Shown piece by piece: positions 1 to 6,778 of a stretch of DNA of 6,778 nt. A model generated the notes under the pieces. The model did no database searches. It was not told the origin of the DNA and worked only from the letters and a program-made list of their open reading frames with translations. The translations under genes and the position numbers were made by a program. Within the stretch, counting starts at the first letter, position 1, and each line of letters starts with the position of its first letter. The stretch lies in IMG/VR virus record IMGVR_UViG_2695420382_000017, one strand, 5' to 3'. This stretch comes from a virus (Duplodnaviria; Heunggongvirae; Uroviricota; Caudoviricetes).

Positions 1-84
1 GCCAAACTGCGATCGATTCAGATGCCATTTTGCAATCAGCGCCAGAACAGCAGCTGACAGGCCGTATTTGATTTTTGCGCTCAT
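1..84 (-). CDS. Probable endolysin (SAR-type phage lysozyme R), N-terminal 28 codons only; gene continues past the window start
   Basis: ATG at 84..82 on the minus strand gives MSAKIKYGLSAAVLALIAKWHLNRSQFG, a Gly/Ala/Leu-rich N-terminus resembling signal-arrest-release endolysins of 933W/Qin-type lysis cassettes (from memory). It sits directly downstream of holin and ydfR-like genes. No clear Shine-Dalgarno; an in-frame stop lies 2 codons upstream. Confidence 0.4.
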   Translation of the reverse strand, partial: MSAKIKYGLSAAVLALIAKWHLNRSQFG

Positions 85-139
85 GGATATTTATCAGGAT
101 GCTACCAATGAAAGATACTGGAAAGCCAACTGCAAAAAG

Positions 140-454
140 CTAACAACCCGTAATCGAGTTATCAGAACTGTTAATTTTTATGGTATACCGCGCCTCTGAA
201 CAGGGGCGCGTTTCTGGCAACAGCTCGTCCCCTTCACATAACCCGGCAGCAACATCCAGGAAGACCTGTCTGATGCTCCTTCTGGCTGCTGCCTCATAAA
301 ACTCCAGCGCGGCACCTTCAACACGGTCCAGCGAGATGTCCAGGTCAAAAATTTCACCGTCAAAGCGTTTTTTGTCCCGTAACGCTAAAGTTACCGTAAC
401 TTTATTCTCAAAATTGCGGATCCCTTTCACAATCAGTTCATAGTTTTGAGTCAT
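140..454 (-). CDS. Small acidic protein in the lysis cassette, YdfR-like (DUF1327-type), 104 aa, function unknown
   Basis: Intact 104-aa ORF with GGAG about 9 nt upstream of the ATG, starting 4 nt after the holin stop (likely translational coupling). The position between pinholin and endolysin and the ~103-aa size match ydfR of the E. coli K-12 Qin prophage (essQ-ydfR-rrrQ), recalled from memory, not sequence-verified. No hydrophobic segment. Confidence 0.6.
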   Translation of the reverse strand: MTQNYELIVKGIRNFENKVTVTLALRDKKRFDGEIFDLDISLDRVEGAALEFYEAAARRSIRQVFLDVAAGLCEGDELLPETRPCSEARYTIKINSSDNSITGC

Positions 455-458
455 TGAA

Positions 459-674
459 TTACTCTCCCCGTGCAGCCTTACGACGGTCCTCTCTGATTTT
501 GAAATACAGGTTAGTCAGATATGTCAGCAGCCCAAACAGCAGACTCCCCAGCACGCCTATTGCCGCCCACTGAGACGGGGAAACCCTGTCCAGCAACTGC
601 AGGAACCAGTAGCCCGTTCCCACCGCTGACGTGGTGTATGACACACCTGTTGTGATTTTTTCCATCTGGTACAT
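459..674 (-). CDS. S: Class II holin, S21-type pinholin (71 aa) with dual-start motif MYQM
   Basis: Translation [71 protein letters not shown] has the phage 21 S21 C-terminus (...[19 protein letters not shown]) and two TM segments. GGGAGA Shine-Dalgarno lies upstream of the ATG at 674. The ORF-track extension to 752 runs through an intrinsic terminator and is not credible. Confidence 0.8.
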
Positions 675-709
675 ACCCCGTCTCCCGTTATCCGGAAGCT
701 GACAACAAT

Positions 710-741
710 AAAAAAAGCCACCAGTTAAGTACTGATGGCTC
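710..741 (-). terminator. Rho-independent terminator between nanS-p and the holin gene (minus strand)
   Basis: Minus-strand sequence AGCCATCAGT-ACTTA-ACTGGTGGCT forms a 10-bp stem (one G-U pair) with a 5-nt loop, followed immediately by TTTTTTT (plus 710-716). Confidence 0.6.
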
Positions 742-824
742 TGATAACTCATGCAGGCATCTCAGACGACCCACTGACACTACCGGTGAGTTTAACGATA
801 CCTTCCATTTGGCTGGCTCACTTT

Positions 825-2678
825 TTATGATGATGCCGGTGCATTTATCTCCAGCACCAGACTTTCTATCTCAACGCCATACGCTGCATTTTTGGTAATA
901 TCCGTCAGCGTCAGCGCATTCAGCCCCAGTGTCAGACTGTCTTTTATGACCTGGAATGCCGGGCCAGCCACTCCATTCAGTTTCGGAGTAACCGTGGCAC
1001 TGCCGGCGGTGAACACCAGCTCCAGCGTCAGCCAGTCGTTACTGTAATTCCCGAACTCGCCCAACTTTGTGTTTCCTGCTTTCTTGTGATGCATCAGATT
1101 CAGTTTGCCGTCTGTGGTCTGGGTGAAGAACGACATCAGGAACGGGTTACCAGTCCCGGTCATCGCCACGACGTCAGGTAACGCTACATCGGTATACAGA
1201 TAAATTCCCAGACCGAACTGGTTGGTGGTCAGTGCGCCTGACAGTCGAAACTTACAGCTCAGTCTGCCACCCCGTGTCAGCAGGGAGACTGCGTCATCCA
1301 CCGGGCGCGTCAGGGACCAGGCTTTATTGCTCTGCTTGGTGATCTTAAATACACCATCTGACAACTGAACTCCGCCATTCTTAATGCTCCAGCCCTGCGC
1401 AGCAGCGTCTCCGGCTGTCGGCAACAGGGAGATTGTGCGTATGGATGCATCTTCAGACGGCCCCGATGGCGTGTCGCCGCCGGGCGAGGGTTTGATTTCC
1501 GGTGCCTTACCACTAATGAAGGCTAAGGTGCGACCGGCTACGTTCAGAATAGCAGTTGCCATACGATCGGGAATAATGCCACGACGCGCCCATGAGCTGA
1601 AATGCGTCGGGCGATTTGATGATACCCAGTTTTTGTTCGTTCGGGATGCCGAACCGTAATAACCAGACCCGGCAATATCAGGATCTTCTGACGGGTTGTT
1701 TGTCGGTGTATTAACTCCGCTACCATCGGTCATAAAGGGAACAAAATAAATCTGCTGGGATTCTTTACCTTTATATGCACCATATACCACTTCATATTGC
1801 GTACCGTGTTCTTGTTTCCACGCGTATGTCGTGTCGCCACAAATCCAGGGGACTGATGCCGGACTTCCACCGTGACACTGCGCCGCCAGCCCGGCAAGGT
1901 CAGCACGGAACTGCTGTACCATTGCAAGAAATGCTGCTGGCTGCTGGGCGTAACTGGCATTCGTCATATCGAATTCCCCCTGCATCCAGCATATCGCCAG
2001 CAAAACGTTTTTCGGGTTTTTCTGCAATGCTGCCTTCGTGCGGAAAAGCAGATCCTGATATAACGGCTTACCCACTCCCCAGCGAGCCGAATCCTGACTG
2101 GCCCCCGTGGACTCGCTGAATGTCCCCTCCGTGCCCTGGGTGAATGCCGAACCACCACGACAGCATGGTACCAGCAGGATCCCCGCATTATTAGGGATAT
2201 ACGGAAGCAGTTTTTTGGCAATATGTAAGCCCTGTCCGACACAGCCGTACTGCCCTTTGCTCAGGTCAGCCCGGGGATGGTTAATCGTACTCATATCCTG
2301 AACATCATGCAGACAATGGTCAGCAGGAATGATGTCGTTAAATACGCATACTTCACCACCGGGAGTCACTGTGTTACGACGGGCCAGTTGCTTAATGCGC
2401 GGATGGGGCGCATCGTATGAATCCGGAAGCGGAAGACCTTCACCGTAAGCCATGGCATTGGATTGCCCGGCCAGTACGATGACGTAGTACCACTCCGGCT
2501 CAGTTGCACCACTGACGACCACATCACCTTCTGCTGCAATCGCCTGCATCAGGGTATAAGGGGTTATGGCCACCGGACTACCAAACGGCTGCCAGCCCTC
2601 CTTCAGTTTTTGTGTCAGTCGTTTCGCAAGGTCTGACGGCGATGCCGCCCTGACCACGTCATAGTGTTTAAATGCCAT
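825..2678 (-). CDS. nanS-p: Prophage-encoded sialate 9-O-acetylesterase NanS-p (N-terminal DUF1737-like domain, SGNH/SASA esterase domain, C-terminal putative carbohydrate-binding domain), 617 aa
   Basis: 617-aa ORF starting MAFKHYDVVRAA... with GGAGG Shine-Dalgarno 5 nt upstream. It contains the SGNH-hydrolase motif VIVLAGQSNAMAYGEG. Domain order and position (downstream of the tRNA/stx locus, upstream of S) match nanS-p of Stx-phage-like prophages in EHEC (established knowledge, from memory). Confidence 0.9.
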   Translation of the reverse strand: MAFKHYDVVRAASPSDLAKRLTQKLKEGWQPFGSPVAITPYTLMQAIAAEGDVVVSGATEPEWYYVIVLAGQSNAMAYGEGLPLPDSYDAPHPRIKQLARRNTVTPGGEVCVFNDIIPADHCLHDVQDMSTINHPRADLSKGQYGCVGQGLHIAKKLLPYIPNNAGILLVPCCRGGSAFTQGTEGTFSESTGASQDSARWGVGKPLYQDLLFRTKAALQKNPKNVLLAICWMQGEFDMTNASYAQQPAAFLAMVQQFRADLAGLAAQCHGGSPASVPWICGDTTYAWKQEHGTQYEVVYGAYKGKESQQIYFVPFMTDGSGVNTPTNNPSEDPDIAGSGYYGSASRTNKNWVSSNRPTHFSSWARRGIIPDRMATAILNVAGRTLAFISGKAPEIKPSPGGDTPSGPSEDASIRTISLLPTAGDAAAQGWSIKNGGVQLSDGVFKITKQSNKAWSLTRPVDDAVSLLTRGGRLSCKFRLSGALTTNQFGLGIYLYTDVALPDVVAMTGTGNPFLMSFFTQTTDGKLNLMHHKKAGNTKLGEFGNYSNDWLTLELVFTAGSATVTPKLNGVAGPAFQVIKDSLTLGLNALTLTDITKNAAYGVEIESLVLEINAPASS

Positions 2679-2872
2679 GAATCCTCCCGGCCGGGATAAT
2701 ATTGTGAGTAAAATAAGGAGCGGGCTGAAGTCCGGAAGTTACAGGACAATGGCAGAAGAGAGACGACAGCCCGCAATTCGAAAAAGACCGCGCAGTTGCG
2801 CAGAGTGATTACTATGGGGTATTATTCGCCAGCTGAAATATTACTTCACGTTTTATTGTTTATTCCTTGCCG

Positions 2873-2900
2873 CCCGCGTCTCCCAGCGCGGGCTTTTTTT
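2873..2900 (+). terminator. Rho-independent terminator, plus strand
   Basis: GCCCGCG-TCTCCCAG-CGCGGGC stem-loop followed by TTTTTTT on the plus strand. Confidence 0.5.
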
Positions 2901-2908
2901 GCCCACAA

Positions 2909-2929
2909 GAAAACCCCTCCGGAGAGGGG
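2909..2929 (-). terminator. Rho-independent terminator, minus strand, formed by the hairpin at the edge of repeat copy A
   Basis: CCCCTC-CGGA-GAGGGG hairpin; on the minus strand it is followed by TTTTCTTGTG. It is convergent with the plus-strand terminator at 2873-2900. Confidence 0.45.
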
Positions 2930-3140
2930 CTAAAGCCGCGTATCTGTATCATCATGCACATGGTGCCGGGTGCCTCCCGGTGAGTTCAGCCCGGTGCCAC
3001 TAAACCCGCGTCATTCTCGTTTTGATAATCAGAGATTATACCGTCACCAGTCGCCCCTCCGCTCAGGGGGATTCACCATGCGAAATTTTTTTAACAAATG
3101 CCCAGTCTGACAGGCAACTGTCAACTTACTGAATTGTGAG
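2914..3140. repeat. ~210-bp noncoding repeat module, copy A (diverged, roughly 70-75 percent identical to copies B and C)
   Basis: Shares with B and C the blocks CCCCTCCGGAGAGGGGCT, CATGGTGCCGGGTGCCTCCCGGTGA-TTCAG, CGCCCCTCCGC-CAGGGGGATTCACCATGC, TTTAACAAA, CAACTGTCAAC and CTGAATTGTGA, separated by diverged spacers with indels. Confidence 0.7.
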
Positions 3141-3176
3141 CAACATAGCATTTAACGGGGAACCTGTTTTCTGCAG

Positions 3177-3204
3177 TAAAAAGGCCCACCGGAGCGGATG
3201 GGCC
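3177..3204 (-). terminator. Rho-independent terminator, minus strand
   Basis: Minus strand reads GGCCCATCCGCTCCGGTGGGCC (GC-rich stem-loop) followed by TTTTTA. Confidence 0.5.
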
Positions 3205-3330
3205 TGGAAGGATAGCGGTCATGTGATGCCGGTTTCCCGGTAACTCAGCACCGGTATCTGAGTCAACGTTTTCTCTACTGGGTCATTTCCGATACGCCCT
3301 GCCTGCTGACAGGCTTTCATCACATCTGAA

Positions 3331-3345
3331 AATATAGCACCCTGA
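3331..3345 (-). promoter_or_regulatory. Candidate sigma70 promoter with extended -10 (TGcTATATT) on the minus strand
   Basis: Minus strand reads GTGCTATATT (TG plus TATATT) at plus 3340..3331; the -35 is weak. Prediction by eye only. Confidence 0.25.
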
Positions 3346-3399
3346 CTGATACTGTAGTACCTAAGGTTCCAGAAACTGTGATGTATCCGGCACAGAAAA

Positions 3400-3608
3400 G
3401 CCCCTCCGGAGAGGGCTGGAGAGTGGCGCTATGTGCCATTGCATGATGCCGGGTGCCTCCCGGTGAATTCAGTACCAGCACCTGAATCCGCGATTATCCC
3501 ATATACCTACTCGCTGATTGCCCCTCCGCACAGGGGGATTCACCATGCCAGTTTCTTTTAACAAACTCCCCGCAAAACAGACAACTGTCAACCGTCTGAA
3601 TTGTGAAG
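3400..3608. repeat. ~210-bp noncoding repeat module, copy B (about 97 percent identical to copy C); distal end truncated by or abutting the IS1 remnant
   Basis: Near-identical to 5675-5884, differing by 1 indel and about 4 substitutions. Begins with hairpin GCCCCTCCGGAGAGGGC and ends CTGAATTGTGAAG, directly joined to internal IS1 sequence. Confidence 0.85.
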
Positions 3609-3946
3609 CCAGCGCTGGCGCGATTTAGCCCCGACATAGCCCCACTGTTCGTCCATTTCCGCGCAGACGATGACGTCACTGCCCGGCTGTATGCGCGAGG
3701 TTACCGACTGCGGCCTGAGTTTTTTAAGTGACGTAAAATCGTGTTGAGGCCAACGCCCATAATGCGTGCAGTTGCCATGTTTTACGGCAGTGAGAGCAGA
3801 GATAGCGCTGATGTCCGGCAGTGCTTTTGCCGTTACGCACCACCCCGTCAGTAGCTGAACAGGAGGGACAGCTGATAGAAACAGAAGCCACTGGAGCACC
3901 TCAAAAACACCATCATACACTAAATCAGTAAGTTGGCAGCATCACC
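3609..3946 (-). mobile_element. IS1 remnant: left inverted repeat plus insA-proximal ~340 bp, truncated internally
   Basis: Minus strand begins GGTGATGCTGCCAACTTACTGAT (IS1 terminal inverted repeat) at 3946 and continues with IS1 insA-region sequence. Relative to canonical IS1 as recalled from memory there appears to be an ~85-bp internal deletion. The element ends at an internal IS1 position at ~3609 with no right end. Confidence 0.8.
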
Positions 3947-4018
3947 CGCCTTGAGCGAGATATATTAAAAAAAGCAACAGCGTATTTTGCACAGGAGTCG
4001 CTGAAAAATACGCGTTAA
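3947..4018 (+). pseudogene. IS3-family orfA, C-terminal fragment (5' end removed by the IS1 insertion)
   Basis: Frame encodes the typical OrfA C-terminus DILKKATAYFA with a stop at 4016-4018; there is no start codon because the element is truncated at 3947. Confidence 0.6.
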
Positions 4019-4053
4019 TCGAACAATGGCGACAACAATTTCCCATTGAAGCG

Positions 4054-4872
4054 ATGTGTCAGGTATTTGGTGTATCCAGGAGCGGTTATTACAACTGGGT
4101 ACAGCATGAACCCTCAGACAGAAAACAAAGTGATGAGCGGCTAAAACTGGAGATTAAGGTGGCACATATCCGCACTCGCGAAACATATGGAACCCGGCGG
4201 CTCCAGACGGAGCTGGCAGAGAATGGCATCATCGTTGGTCGTGACCGACTGGCACGTCTTCGTAAGGAGCTAAGGCTACGCTGTAAGCAGAAACGCAAGT
4301 TCAGAGCGACTACGAACTCGAACCACAATCTGCCAGTTGCGCCAAATCTGCTGAACCAGACGTTCGCTCCTACAGCACCAAATCAGGTCTGGGTGGCGGA
4401 CCTGACGTATGTTGCCACACAGGAGGGATGGTTGTACCTCGCTGGCATCAAAGATGTTTATACGTGCGAAATTGTCGGCTACGCCATGGGAGAGCGCATG
4501 ACAAAAGAGCTGACAGGTAAAGCCCTGTTTATGGCGCTCAGGAGCCAGCGCCCACCTGCCGGGCTAATCCACCACTCTGATCGAGGTTCACAGTACTGCG
4601 CATACGATTACCGGGTCATACAGGAGCAGTCTGGTCTGAAAACATCAATGTCGCGTAAAGGTAACTGTTACGACAACGCTCCGATGGAAAGCTTCTGGGG
4701 AACGCTGAAAAATGAGAGCCTGAGCCACTATCGTTTTAATAACCGGGATGAAGCCATCTCAGTAATACGGGAATACATTGAGATTTTCTACAATCGTCAG
4801 CGTCGTCACTCTCGTCTGGGGAATATCTCCCCGGCAGCCTTCAGGGAAAAATATCATCAGATGGCTGCTTAA
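4054..4872 (+). CDS. IS3-family transposase OrfB (DDE integrase-type catalytic domain), 272 aa from the first ATG; normally expressed as an OrfAB fusion by -1 frameshifting
   Basis: Translation contains hallmark IS3-family OrfB segments (NQVWVADLTYV, HHSDRGSQY, NCYDNAPMESFW, YNRQRRHSRLG), consistent with the DDE catalytic triad region. Confidence 0.9.
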   Translation: MCQVFGVSRSGYYNWVQHEPSDRKQSDERLKLEIKVAHIRTRETYGTRRLQTELAENGIIVGRDRLARLRKELRLRCKQKRKFRATTNSNHNLPVAPNLLNQTFAPTAPNQVWVADLTYVATQEGWLYLAGIKDVYTCEIVGYAMGERMTKELTGKALFMALRSQRPPAGLIHHSDRGSQYCAYDYRVIQEQSGLKTSMSRKGNCYDNAPMESFWGTLKNESLSHYRFNNRDEAISVIREYIEIFYNRQRRHSRLGNISPAAFREKYHQMAA

Positions 4873-4913
4873 AAAAAGAACAAATGGTAGTGTCCGCTAT
4901 TGCCAGTACACCT

Positions 4914-5042
4914 CAGGGTATAAGGGGTTATGGCCACCGGACTACCAAACGGCTGCCAGCCCTCTTTCAGTTTATGTGTCAGCTTTTCCGCAAGATCTGA
5001 CGGCGGCGCCGCCCTGACAACATCATAGTGTTTAAATGCCAT
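4914..5042 (-). pseudogene. nanS-p paralog, N-terminal 43 codons only, disrupted by the IS3-family insertion
   Basis: Minus-strand translation MAFKHYDVVRAAPPSDLAEKLTHKLKEGWQPFGSPVAITPYTL matches the first 43 residues of the intact NanS-p with 4 differences (about 90 percent nucleotide identity by eye), then reads into the IS right end. The upstream leader differs from that of the intact copy. Confidence 0.85.
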
Positions 5043-5235
5043 GGTTCTTTCCACCATCTGAAAAATAATTCTTTAAAATACCTGACATGTAATACAGAAA
5101 AAACACAAAACCATACCTTAAATAAAAACCTGATTATCAAGCAGATATGCATGGATAAACTACAAGACGAGATATAAACCACCCTGCATTTAAATAAACA
5201 ATAAACAACATCAGAAAAATAATTCTGCTCTATGG

Positions 5236-5262
5236 TTTACATTCAAAAATATCATTTATACT
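5236..5262 (+). promoter_or_regulatory. Candidate sigma70 promoter (TTTACA, 15-nt spacer, TATACT) for the ORF at 5303
   Basis: Sequence read by eye in an AT-rich region; spacer is suboptimal at 15 nt. Confidence 0.3.
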
Positions 5263-5302
5263 TTTCAGAACATCACCAGCAAGGCATAAACAAGGAAACT
5301 AA

Positions 5303-5638
5303 ATGAAGTGGATTGTGATTGATACAGTTATCCAGCCATCATGCGGAATATCTTTTTCAGTCATATGGAGTAAAATAAAATTAATAATCTGGTATCAATC
5401 GGATGCTTTCTTACCTCCTGAAAGTATATTTACACTGACTCACACAGGCATCATGCTCAATAACAAAGTGCTACCTGTAACCATTTACAACGTAGTACCA
5501 TTCAATAAAACATTCTGGAATTTAATCAAAAACAGCCAGGAATGCCCTACAAATACAGATAACGTATTGAATGAATGCTTTAATAACCGTTGCACTCTGC
5601 AAATATGTCCTTATGGACTAAAACAACAAAGTCCATAA
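5303..5638 (+). CDS. Hypothetical protein, 111 aa, AT-rich orphan moron ORF, convergent with the phage late operon
   Basis: Strong Shine-Dalgarno (AAGGA, ~6-nt spacer) before the ATG and a candidate promoter upstream. The region is AT-rich by eye (not counted). Five Cys residues. No family recognised. The 3' end is covered by an 11-bp perfect inverted repeat. Confidence 0.5.
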
Positions 5639-5674
5639 GGAGTTTACTCACATCTGACAAAATCAATATAAACA

Positions 5675-5697
5675 GCCCCTCCGGAGAGGGGCTGGAG
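5675..5697 (-). terminator. Candidate rho-independent terminator (minus strand) at the end of repeat copy C
   Basis: GC-rich 7-8 bp stem with CGGA loop; the downstream minus-strand sequence is T-rich but interrupted. Confidence 0.4.
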
Positions 5698-5884
5698 AGT
5701 GGCGCTATGTGCCATTGCATGGTGCCGGGTGCCTCCCGGTGAATTCAGTACCAGCACCTGAATCCGCGATTATCCCATATACCTACTCGCTGATTGCCCC
5801 TCCGCACAGGGGGATTCACCATGCCAGTTTCTTTTAACAAACTCCCCGCAAACCAGACAACAGTCAACCGCCTGAATTGTGAAG
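5675..5884. repeat. ~210-bp noncoding repeat module, copy C (complete)
   Basis: Near-identical to copy B and clearly related to copy A. On the minus strand it ends in hairpin GCCCCTCTCCGGAGGGGC followed by the T-rich GTTTATATTGATTTTG. Confidence 0.85.
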
Positions 5885-5918
5885 TATTTAAAAATTTCTC
5901 CCGCTAACTGATACCCGG

Positions 5919-6005
5919 CTAACAGTCTGGCGTTTTCTTTTTCAGCAACGGGAAAGCAACAACCACCACACCCGCCACCAGCACACCGTCAGCCAGCACT
6001 GACAT
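5919..6005 (-). CDS. Candidate small hydrophobic peptide (28 aa: MSVLADGVLVAGVVVVAFPLLKKKTPDC); speculative
   Basis: ATG-initiated small ORF encoding one predicted TM-like segment followed by KKK; only a weak GGA Shine-Dalgarno-like element. The same DNA is a CA-rich tract on the plus strand, so the ORF may be coincidental. Confidence 0.15.
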   Translation of the reverse strand: MSVLADGVLVAGVVVVAFPLLKKKTPDC

Positions 6006-6085
6006 TATCCGGCTGCTGCAATGCCATTCACAAAAACAGTAAGCAATCACTTTTTACCGTAACAGGTGATAATCCAGATATGTAT

Positions 6086-6439
6086 CTACCCCAGATGAGT
6101 AATCCGAAGTTCATCCATACCACAGGTCCTGGCTATTCTGTTGTACTCCTGAACAAGAGCAAATAATTCTGAATTAGCAACCATGAACTCATCGCAAACC
6201 CTCTGTATAGCATCACTATTCAGAATAATAACGTCTCTTCCCGAAAGACGATCAGGAGTACAGAACAAAACTGTCAAACGGCTGAAGGCCTTTGCTCGTG
6301 CTGCATTGACTATATCAATACGCTGCCTAAGGATGAAACACCCCGACGCCTCATCAATATTCACTCTACCCACACCATATGAATGATAAATATTTAATGC
6401 TGAAAAAACCATTAGACCGTATAACAAACACTCAATCAA
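6086..6439 (-). CDS. Hypothetical ORF, 117 aa, at the position occupied by stxAB in Stx phages; doubtful
   Basis: Open frame in late-operon orientation just downstream of the tRNAs, but it starts with TTG and has no recognisable Shine-Dalgarno, and no family is recognised. May be a decayed or noncoding region. Confidence 0.2.
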   Translation of the reverse strand: MIECLLYGLMVFSALNIYHSYGVGRVNIDEASGCFILRQRIDIVNAARAKAFSRLTVLFCTPDRLSGRDVIILNSDAIQRVCDEFMVANSELFALVQEYNRIARTCGMDELRITHLG

Positions 6440-6549
6440 TACTTAACAGAACTTTTATTTTTGACAAACATAAAATATTTTCAACAATATCCTGAGCCAG
6501 GTATATTTCAGTATAAGGCTCTGCCGGAAGGAATCTGGAAGAATGAATA

Positions 6550-6626
6550 TGGCGCGCTGTACTGGATTCGAACCAGTGACCGATTGCTTAGAAGGCAATT
6601 GCTCTGTCCGGCTGAGCTAACAACGC
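6550..6626 (-). tRNA. argO: tRNA-Arg (anticodon UCU)
   Basis: Minus strand GCGTTGT-TA-GCTC-AGCCGGACA-GAGC-A-ATTGC-CTTCTAA-GCAAT-CGGTC-ACTGG-TTCGAAT-CCAGT-ACAGCGC-G-CCA: canonical cloverleaf with a 7-bp acceptor stem (one G-U), TTCGAAT T-loop, anticodon TCT and encoded CCA. Similar to E. coli argU. The symbol is assigned by position; it could equally be argN. Confidence 0.85.
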
Positions 6627-6639
6627 TGAATACCGATAA

Positions 6640-6719
6640 TGGACCGCCATCGGGGACCCGCCCCCGCACCAACAACCCTGTTATCGTGTCGTCTGCTCTT
6701 CCTGATAAGCTAATGGCGG
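6640..6719 (-). tRNA. tRNA-like element or pseudo-tRNA: perfect 7-bp acceptor stem, discriminator U and encoded CCA, plausible D-arm, but no canonical anticodon or T arm
   Basis: Minus strand CCGCCAT...ATGGCGG-T-CCA with D-stem GCTT/GAGC and a GG-containing D-loop. A manual search finds no 5-bp stem with a 7-nt loop at the anticodon position, and the T-arm has a 6-nt loop (CGGGG/CCCCG stem). It occupies the middle slot of the ileZ-argN-argO type cluster. Confidence 0.35.
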
Positions 6720-6726
6720 TTTGTGA

Positions 6727-6778
6727 TGGTGGCCCTTGCTGGATTTGAACCAGCGACCTGGCGATTATGAGTCGCTCG
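6727..6778 (-). tRNA. ileZ: tRNA-Ile (anticodon CAU, lysidine-type, ileX/ileZ-like), 3' 52 nt only; 5' part lies beyond the window end
   Basis: Minus strand ...GACTCATAATCGCC-AGGTC-GCTGG-TTCAAAT-CCAGC-AAGGGCC-A-CCA: CAT anticodon loop, canonical T-arm, acceptor 3' strand and CCA. Strongly resembles E. coli ileX. Confidence 0.75.

Follow-up and report, generated by a model that had tools for sequence, protein, structure and literature searches.

Among the closest known relatives of the locus analysed here are the late regions of lambdoid prophages in Escherichia coli 042 and ATCC 11775. They follow the order Q - (methyltransferase) - tRNA-Ile/Arg - STnc100 repeat(s) - (IraM) - nanS-p/DUF1737 - holin - YdfR and share this gene order, at 99.1-99.7% identity, with the two modules of our sequence, but they are free of IS, the two modules occupy separate prophages, and nanS-p has a 1491-bp internal deletion in both. 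Shigella sonnei genomes carry a median of 286 IS insertions, with IS1 as the commonest element (PMC7373316), and at such numbers short reads cannot place the 969 bp of IS600 found in our sequence. The public Sanger dataset includes 299 S. sonnei assemblies, which average 405 contigs each, and the underlying pipeline combines Velvet, SSPACE and 120 GapFiller iterations, the greedy steps of which can cause false joins (Page et al., PMC5320598). GapFiller extends unique contig edges using reads with mates anchored in the contig and by default closes a gap once the extensions overlap by at least 10 nt, which is checked after each nucleotide added (PMC3446322).

The window, i.e. the whole stretch of 6778 bases that we analysed, is very probably a complete contig of a short-read S. 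sonnei draft, because its left end matches sibling contig ends, its right end lies in a tRNA-Ile repeat and its nanS-p gene is confined to drafts. Position 1 falls within 2 nt of the contig ends in four sibling S. sonnei drafts, and at the right end the window breaks off after 57 nt of an 87-nt exact repeat, the tRNA-Ile gene common to both prophage tRNA clusters. Besides, the exact 617-aa NanS-p protein, which is on record as CSQ26417, CSQ48286, CSQ64542 and CSQ77387, was found in only six contigs, all of them from S. sonnei drafts and 2-20 kb long. No N is present in the window. Read on the minus strand, it has the layout of a lambdoid prophage late region, which starts with a partial tRNA (6730-6778, the counterpart of a tRNA-Ile gene annotated in E. 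coli 042), a tRNA-Arg gene (6550-6626), a 117-aa phage ORF and repeat copy C (5664-5884, minus strand). It continues with an IraM-like gene (5303-5638) on the opposite strand to the other prophage genes, a nanS-p fragment of 43 codons, IS600, IS1 and repeat copy B (3388-3606, minus strand), and ends with a degenerate repeat copy, repeat copy A, full-length nanS-p (825-2678, minus strand), a holin gene and a DUF1327 gene.

Sequence comparison supports the view that the two modules come from distinct lambdoid prophages. Module 1 (4913-6778), which occurs throughout S. sonnei, shares 99.7% identity with a prophage of E. coli 042. Module 2 (1-3606) is similar to a prophage of the E. coli ATCC 11775 type and shows 100% identity to sibling drafts. 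The name nanS-p denotes a prophage 9-O-acetyl sialate esterase gene, and the full-length copy belongs to module 2; its 617-aa product carries the Pfam domains DUF1737, SASA esterase and DUF6645 and is named YjhS or SASA family carbohydrate esterase in its S. sonnei source records. Repeat copy B is an STnc100-family sRNA module, composed of an Rfam RF02076 match (3388-3577) and 29 nt upstream, and belongs to this family with 123.6 bits at a gathering score of 47; copies A and C reach 161 and 132 bits, respectively. It is 100% identical to the sibling contigs as far as 3606. Copy C is the STnc100 module of prophage module 1, and copies B and C share 98% identity, including an exact common stretch of ~130 nt.

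The truncated nanS-p gene (nanS-p', 4916-5042, minus strand) comprises the first 43 codons of a DUF1737/nanS-p gene that belongs to module 1. Of a DUF1737 domain followed by SASA, just these 43 DUF1737 codons are present (PF08410 on a 57-aa ORF). As proposed in the earlier note, this paralog is cut after codon 43 by the right end of an IS3-family element, which we identify as IS600. A TCA at 4913-4915 is common to the IS600 terminus and the target and places the junction at 4913-4916, compared with ~4910-4913 in that proposal; all positions given there lie within 0-5 nt of those found here. The 57-aa chimeric nanS-p'/IS600 ORF occurs in 888 blocks of the protein-position collection, including complete S. 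sonnei chromosomes (53G), and hundreds of S. sonnei assemblies, complete genomes among them, contain the junction. The nanS-p'/IS600 junction is real, old and species-wide.

In the complete S. sonnei genomes, the IS600 copy next to nanS-p' is either full length or split by IS1 at other sites. Beyond this copy lies an unrelated gene, and the flanking triplets (TAG left, GGG right) differ, so that the 3-bp target-site duplication of IS600 is absent from these genomes; PHROGs assigned no function to the S. sonnei genes that lie past IS600. The unrelated left flank and the missing 3-bp duplication imply an earlier rearrangement mediated by IS600, in which the remaining part of nanS-p' was lost and the DNA beyond a full-length, nanS-p'-adjacent IS600 was replaced. 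Since a full-length IS600 occupies the same junction in complete genomes, the remainder of nanS-p' was gone before any IS1 event, and the order of loss assumed in the earlier note is not supported. The same account had attributed a loss of about 1.7 kb of the second nanS-p to the module fusion. This figure has no support either, as E. coli 042, the closest IS-free relative (99.7% over 4913-6778), has no 1.85-kb gene at this place and only a ~350-bp DUF1737 remnant, with window positions 968-2458 being deleted there.

As a reference for IS600 we used an intact 1264-bp copy from a complete S. sonnei genome (L001), which lies beside nanS-p'. The IS600 portion of the window (3947-4915, plus strand) corresponds to IS600 nt 296-1264 and agrees with this nanS-p'-adjacent copy in 969 of 969 bases. 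It retains the last 24 orfA codons, the A7G slippery run (3968-3975), all of orfB (4054-4872) and the right inverted repeat, which ends at 4915. As nt 1-295 are lacking, and with them the left inverted repeat and orfA codons 1-76, the IS600 portion has only one of the two terminal inverted repeats (5'-TG...CA-3') and an incomplete orfA, and is a remnant and no autonomous element. The orfB product matches NF033516 transpos_IS3 with 334 bits at a cut-off of 160, together with the Pfam domains rve, HTH_21 and rve_3, and the near-identical E. coli matches are annotated in RefSeq as 'IS3-like element IS600 family transposase'. At position 4233, the window and the nanS-p'-adjacent copy both have C, and most other sampled IS600 copies have T; this fits a correct local assembly at least to that base. 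The shared C at 4233 and the lack of N in the window both speak against an artefact.

The 5' part of IS600 is replaced at 3946/3947 (J2) by the inverted repeat of IS1, again in agreement with the earlier reading: the left inverted repeat terminus of IS1 ends exactly at 3946 and abuts IS600 nt 296. For the reciprocal half of such an insertion, a protein was predicted in which OrfA residues 1-79 run into the right end of IS1. This protein (P0030) was found with 106 aa and one substitution in an independent S. sonnei draft, the DNA of which (L017) shows IS600 nt 1-304 followed directly by the right inverted repeat of IS1. Together, the halves from the window and from L017, which come from different assemblies, share the 9-bp duplication CGCCTTGAG, corresponding to IS600 nt 296-304. 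On this sequence match, J2 is one half of a genuine IS1 transposition into an IS600 copy and represents an ordinary insertion with the left end at nt 296 and a 9-bp duplication. In L017, the left flank of IS600 is chromosomal (yehL side) and the element carries the SNP C126T relative to the nanS-p'-adjacent copy. With this flank and this SNP, the IS600 copy bearing IS1 may or may not be the one adjoining nanS-p'.

The IS1 remnant itself (3607-3946, minus strand) was compared with an intact 768-bp copy from a complete S. sonnei genome (L002 1864-2631). It consists of IS1 nt 1-180 and 266-425 and is identical to the intact copy in 340 of 340 bases, which, together with the 969 matching bases of IS600, bears out the two element identities that had been suggested for the locus. 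The terminal inverted repeat GGTGATGCTGCCAACTTACTGAT is present as the left copy (3924-3946, reverse strand). Its right counterpart and most of insB are absent, and with insA frameshifted and the element ending at nt 425, insA-insB' is not intact. An internal deletion of ~85 bp that frameshifts insA had also been reported; as a feature of the contig it is confirmed and spans exactly 85 bp between two GGCAACTGCA copies (IS1 nt 171-180 and 256-265), whereas as a genomic event it is disfavoured relative to an assembly artefact. A single copy of GGCAACTGCA is kept at 3767-3776 (minus strand; J3), and this sequence is the only direct repeat of at least 10 nt in the 768-bp IS1. The frameshifted insA' (3724-3891, minus strand) encodes 55 instead of 91 aa, with an intact zinc-binding N-terminus (NF050000 IS1/IS1595 zinc-binding domain, 42 bits) and an out-of-frame C-terminus. 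That the IS1 segment might be a full-length variant, which the earlier note had named as a possible refutation, can be dismissed, as intact IS1 copies of S. sonnei and E. coli contain the 85 bp. A circulating or recurrent IS1 allele is likewise rejected, since a deletion-specific 44-nt probe found 0 copies in 5,426 complete E. coli genomes, in which IS1 gave more than 57,000 matches.

At its inner end, the IS1 remnant is joined directly to repeat copy B. The earlier note had placed this contact at ~3609; we find it at 3606/3607 (J1) as a blunt join of IS1 nt 425 to repeat B, with no microhomology relative to the sibling copy B. At 3606, the sibling contigs and the E. coli relatives continue into GACATTTAAAAAAAAGG and a tRNA cluster. 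J1 was not found in the complete E. coli genomes, the compared loci, genome_contigs or metagenome_contigs. Probes of 100 nt for three junctions had no true match in the 5,426 complete E. coli genomes, a probe of 481 nt matched ordinary IS1 only when run against plasmids, and the exact junction patterns were absent from the compared loci, genome_contigs and metagenome_contigs. The ORFs that cross a junction or the deletion (insA' with 55 aa and ORFs of 110, 61 and 42 aa) gave no exact record in a search that is insensitive, as the contig's own record apparently lacks such calls. An IS1-promoted adjacent deletion or a one-ended transposition can be rejected as the origin of J1, because the break lies at the internal nt 425 and nothing there resembles an IS1 end. 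A site-specific event at a repeat-unit boundary was also discarded: copies B and C become homologous again within a few bases (ATTTAAAAA), and the boundary is therefore not a sharp one. If real, J1 cannot be a product of transposition, and to this extent the earlier argument that an IS1-internal junction does not arise by transposition holds. All four features are confirmed to be present, and with 100% identity to the reference IS copies over hundreds of bases they are no chance matches. That all four junctions would occur on one molecule in a living isolate goes beyond what sequence can confirm.

The sibling drafts belong to the accession batch GCA_0012.... In the two siblings that read past 3606 (L011 and L012), repeat B is followed by tRNA-Arg/Arg/Ile genes, an arrangement shared with E. 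coli ATCC 11775, where the same tRNAs are followed by the methyltransferase and Q; L011 also has the methyltransferase gene upstream of the tRNAs. Two others (L013 and L014) break inside copy B, at 3566 and 3458, within the stretch common to B and C. The sibling scaffolds contain N gaps and link modules 1 and 2 in three mutually incompatible ways, and one sibling has a C/B chimeric repeat and a duplicated tRNA-B flank. This shows that the sibling assemblies are unreliable in this region. Comparable irregularities are found in a different accession batch (GCA_9004...), in which two other S. sonnei drafts end in IS600 mosaics, composed of nt 1-286, 389-475, T7 and 4-101 in one case and of nt 1-292, 383-475, T7 and 4-107 in the other; two more proteins imply IS600 breakpoints at nt 279 and 283. 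These mosaics are isolate-specific and have blunt jumps, which indicates that blunt IS-internal junctions do arise as artefacts in such assemblies.

On balance, we lean towards the fusion and the 85-bp deletion being assembly artefacts laid over two real junctions, nanS-p'/IS600 and IS1/IS600; an artefact had been considered in the earlier note as well, and it is favoured for the former pair and not for the latter. The locus would then be routine IS debris in a defective lambdoid S. sonnei prophage, recorded in a short-read draft contig, where scaffolding and gap closure through multi-copy IS most likely produced the 85-bp deletion, J1 and the apparent fusion of two modules. Thus, of the fusion as first described, the origin of the modules from two different lambdoid prophages stands, whereas their physical union is probably wrong in view of the contradictory sibling scaffolds. 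We infer that J1, J3 and the linkage between the modules originated in the assembly pipeline, with the pipeline of this particular contig being presumed. The 85-bp 'deletion' could be a false gap closure at the sole 10-nt direct repeat of IS1, because its ends coincide with the only repeat of at least 10 nt and the default overlap of GapFiller is 10 nt. However, J1 has no overlap, so a 10-nt closure cannot have made it, and another step or real reads must account for it. It also counts against an artefact that within a primary contig, a de Bruijn assembler can cross a junction only on real k-mers, that the 10-nt repeat is the favoured site for natural deletion by replication slippage as well, that the scrambled IS600 mosaics belong to another accession batch than the siblings, and that truncated IS copies are common in real Shigella genomes.

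These objections lead to the alternative that the whole contig is real, which we hold to be unlikely. It would require an insertion of IS1 into the nanS-p'-adjacent IS600 at nt 296-304 and two further events, namely a later illegitimate deletion or rearrangement without microhomology, joining IS1 nt 425 to the edge of repeat B of a second, recently acquired prophage, and then replication slippage between the GGCAACTGCA repeats that removed 85 bp. As an outcome, module 2 with its three STnc100 copies, full nanS-p and lysis genes would lie directly downstream of module 1. Such a history draws support from a contig free of N, from the exact IS1 terminus at J2, whose partner half is known from L017, and from the IS600 segment, which agrees with the nanS-p'-adjacent copy at the single discriminating SNP. 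Within IS1, no sequence is a better slippage substrate than the 10-nt repeat, IS-driven decay with truncated IS copies is typical of S. sonnei, and three sibling scaffolds also set both modules adjacent in the same orientation; yet these scaffolds contradict one another. Moreover, three extra rare events would have to fall within 340 bp in one isolate, while the siblings are 100% identical over 1-3606 and then show the tRNA flank. No junction probe matched anywhere else searched, the 85-bp deletion occurs in 0 of 5,426 complete E. coli genomes, and the contig end in the tRNA-Ile repeat suggests that a second tRNA cluster persists in the genome, though the illegitimate deletion should have removed it. 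An intermediate possibility, in our judgement quite improbable, takes the join of repeat B to IS1 nt 425 as real, possibly with the linkage to IS600 and nanS-p', and only the 85-bp deletion as a false closure. The mate-anchored extension of GapFiller, by which the first bases past repeat B should be locus-specific, argues for it, and the deletion ends match the 10-nt closure rule exactly in a deletion that is absent elsewhere. Against this, L013 and L014 end at 3566 and 3458, so the last 30-150 nt before J1 may also be gap-fill, and blunt jumps occur as artefacts in comparable drafts.

It is unlikely that the contig is correct and that in one S. sonnei isolate a microhomology-free break inside the IS600-nested IS1 fused the late region of a newly acquired lambdoid prophage onto a resident defective prophage. 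If this were true, the acquired part would comprise three STnc100/PasD-type sRNA genes, an intact nanS-p sialate esterase and lysis genes, placed downstream of the resident Q antiterminator and tRNA module, and the locus would offer a small, datable example of IS-mediated prophage mosaic formation. Under the favoured reading of fusion and deletion as assembly artefacts, the lesson is one of caution: odd IS-internal junctions in gap-filled drafts need read-level or long-read support before they are read in evolutionary terms, and a deletion bounded by exactly the minimum overlap of a gap closer is a useful warning sign. On every reading, the locus shows ordinary Shigella IS decay of a known kind. 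Prophage remnants with nested and truncated copies of IS1 and IS600 are to be expected in S. sonnei and imply no new mechanism or function.

This picture can be set against the known elements and assemblies. Compared with the 768-bp IS1 of S. sonnei (annotated in E. coli RefSeq as 'IS1-like element IS1A family'), nt 1-180 and 266-425 of the remnant are 100% the same, and it shares the intact left inverted repeat and a 9-bp duplication that can be reconstructed with L017. It differs in the absence of nt 181-265 and 426-768 and, because insA is frameshifted and insB truncated, the remnant cannot transpose. Shigella drafts built with SSPACE/GapFiller are similar to our contig in joining at an overlap of exactly 10 nt inside multi-copy IS, and other S. 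sonnei drafts have blunt internal IS jumps at contig ends. The differences are that J1 has no overlap at all and that the pipeline is presumed rather than proven for this contig. The prophage remnant on the yecE side of S. sonnei (53G, Ss046) differs from our locus in that its IS600 is full length or split by IS1 elsewhere (L003) and is followed by unrelated genes instead of IS1 and repeat B. Apart from this, it has the same nanS-p'/IS600 junction, the same 57-aa ORF and 969 of 969 identical IS600 bases, and it shares the upstream order Q - tRNA - DUF3927 - STnc100 - IraM at 99.9% identity.

Two loci from S. sonnei complete genomes carry IS1 within IS600, one (L003, 10275-11043) at the equivalent of window 4768-4777 and the other (L002, 1864-2631) at the equivalent of window 4157-4165. 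Since these other IS1 copies occupy different IS600 sites, nesting of IS1 in IS600 is recurrent in S. sonnei. In two S. sonnei drafts, scrambled IS600 mosaics form the contig ends: L018 (GCA_900487845.1) reads IS600 nt 1-286, 389-475, TTTTTTT and 4-101 at positions 2937-3414, and L019 (GCA_900488945.1) reads 1-292, 383-475, TTTTTTT and 4-107 at 2937-3430. Additional IS600 breakpoints are implied by the proteins P0136 and P0142. These blunt jumps, which are isolate-specific at one shared locus, look like the product of assembly artefacts.

Both ends of the window look like repeat-bounded contig ends: position 1 falls where contigs of four sibling drafts also end, and the right end (6722-6778) breaks off 57 nt inside an 87-nt exact tRNA-Ile repeat that is common to two prophage tRNA clusters. 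The sibling S. sonnei scaffold L012 (at 3997-4220 and 6406-6630) contains a chimeric STnc100 gene, with a terminator side of the copy C type and a promoter side of the copy B type, together with a duplication of the tRNA-B flank within the same scaffold. This combination could stem from a genuine recombinant, but a repeat-induced misjoin is the more likely origin of both the chimera and the doubled flank.

Among IS-free relatives, the E. coli strains ATCC 11775 and 042 have in common a nanS-p allele that has lost 1491 bp from its interior (window 968-2458 missing; junctions at L015 5770-5785 and L016 4908-4923), so that the DUF1737 N-terminus is joined to the final ~143 nt via a 16-nt overlap. 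In RefSeq this allele is annotated as two features, a DUF1737 pseudogene and a small hypothetical ORF. The prophage in the window carries a homologue of IraM, an anti-adapter of RssB (window 5303-5638, plus strand; NF007393, 162 bits; Pfam PmrD). E. coli 042 has this gene as well, with 99.7% identity, and the segment from the nanS-p fragment to IraM (window 4916-5660) is present in ~1,385 E. coli complete genomes. The IraM gene is placed antisense, with the nanS-p fragment on one side and STnc100 copy C on the other.

The repeat copies A (window 2901-3110, 161 bits), B (3388-3577, 124 bits) and C (5664-5853, 132 bits) are STnc100-family sRNA genes (Rfam RF02076), all on the minus strand, as is a degenerate fourth copy (3176-3349) scoring 30 bits, under the RF02076 gathering score. 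Upstream of nanS-p, three to four copies form a dense cluster within 3 kb. Prophage PasD sRNAs are related to STnc100, according to a 2026 preprint (10.64898/2026.05.13.724894).
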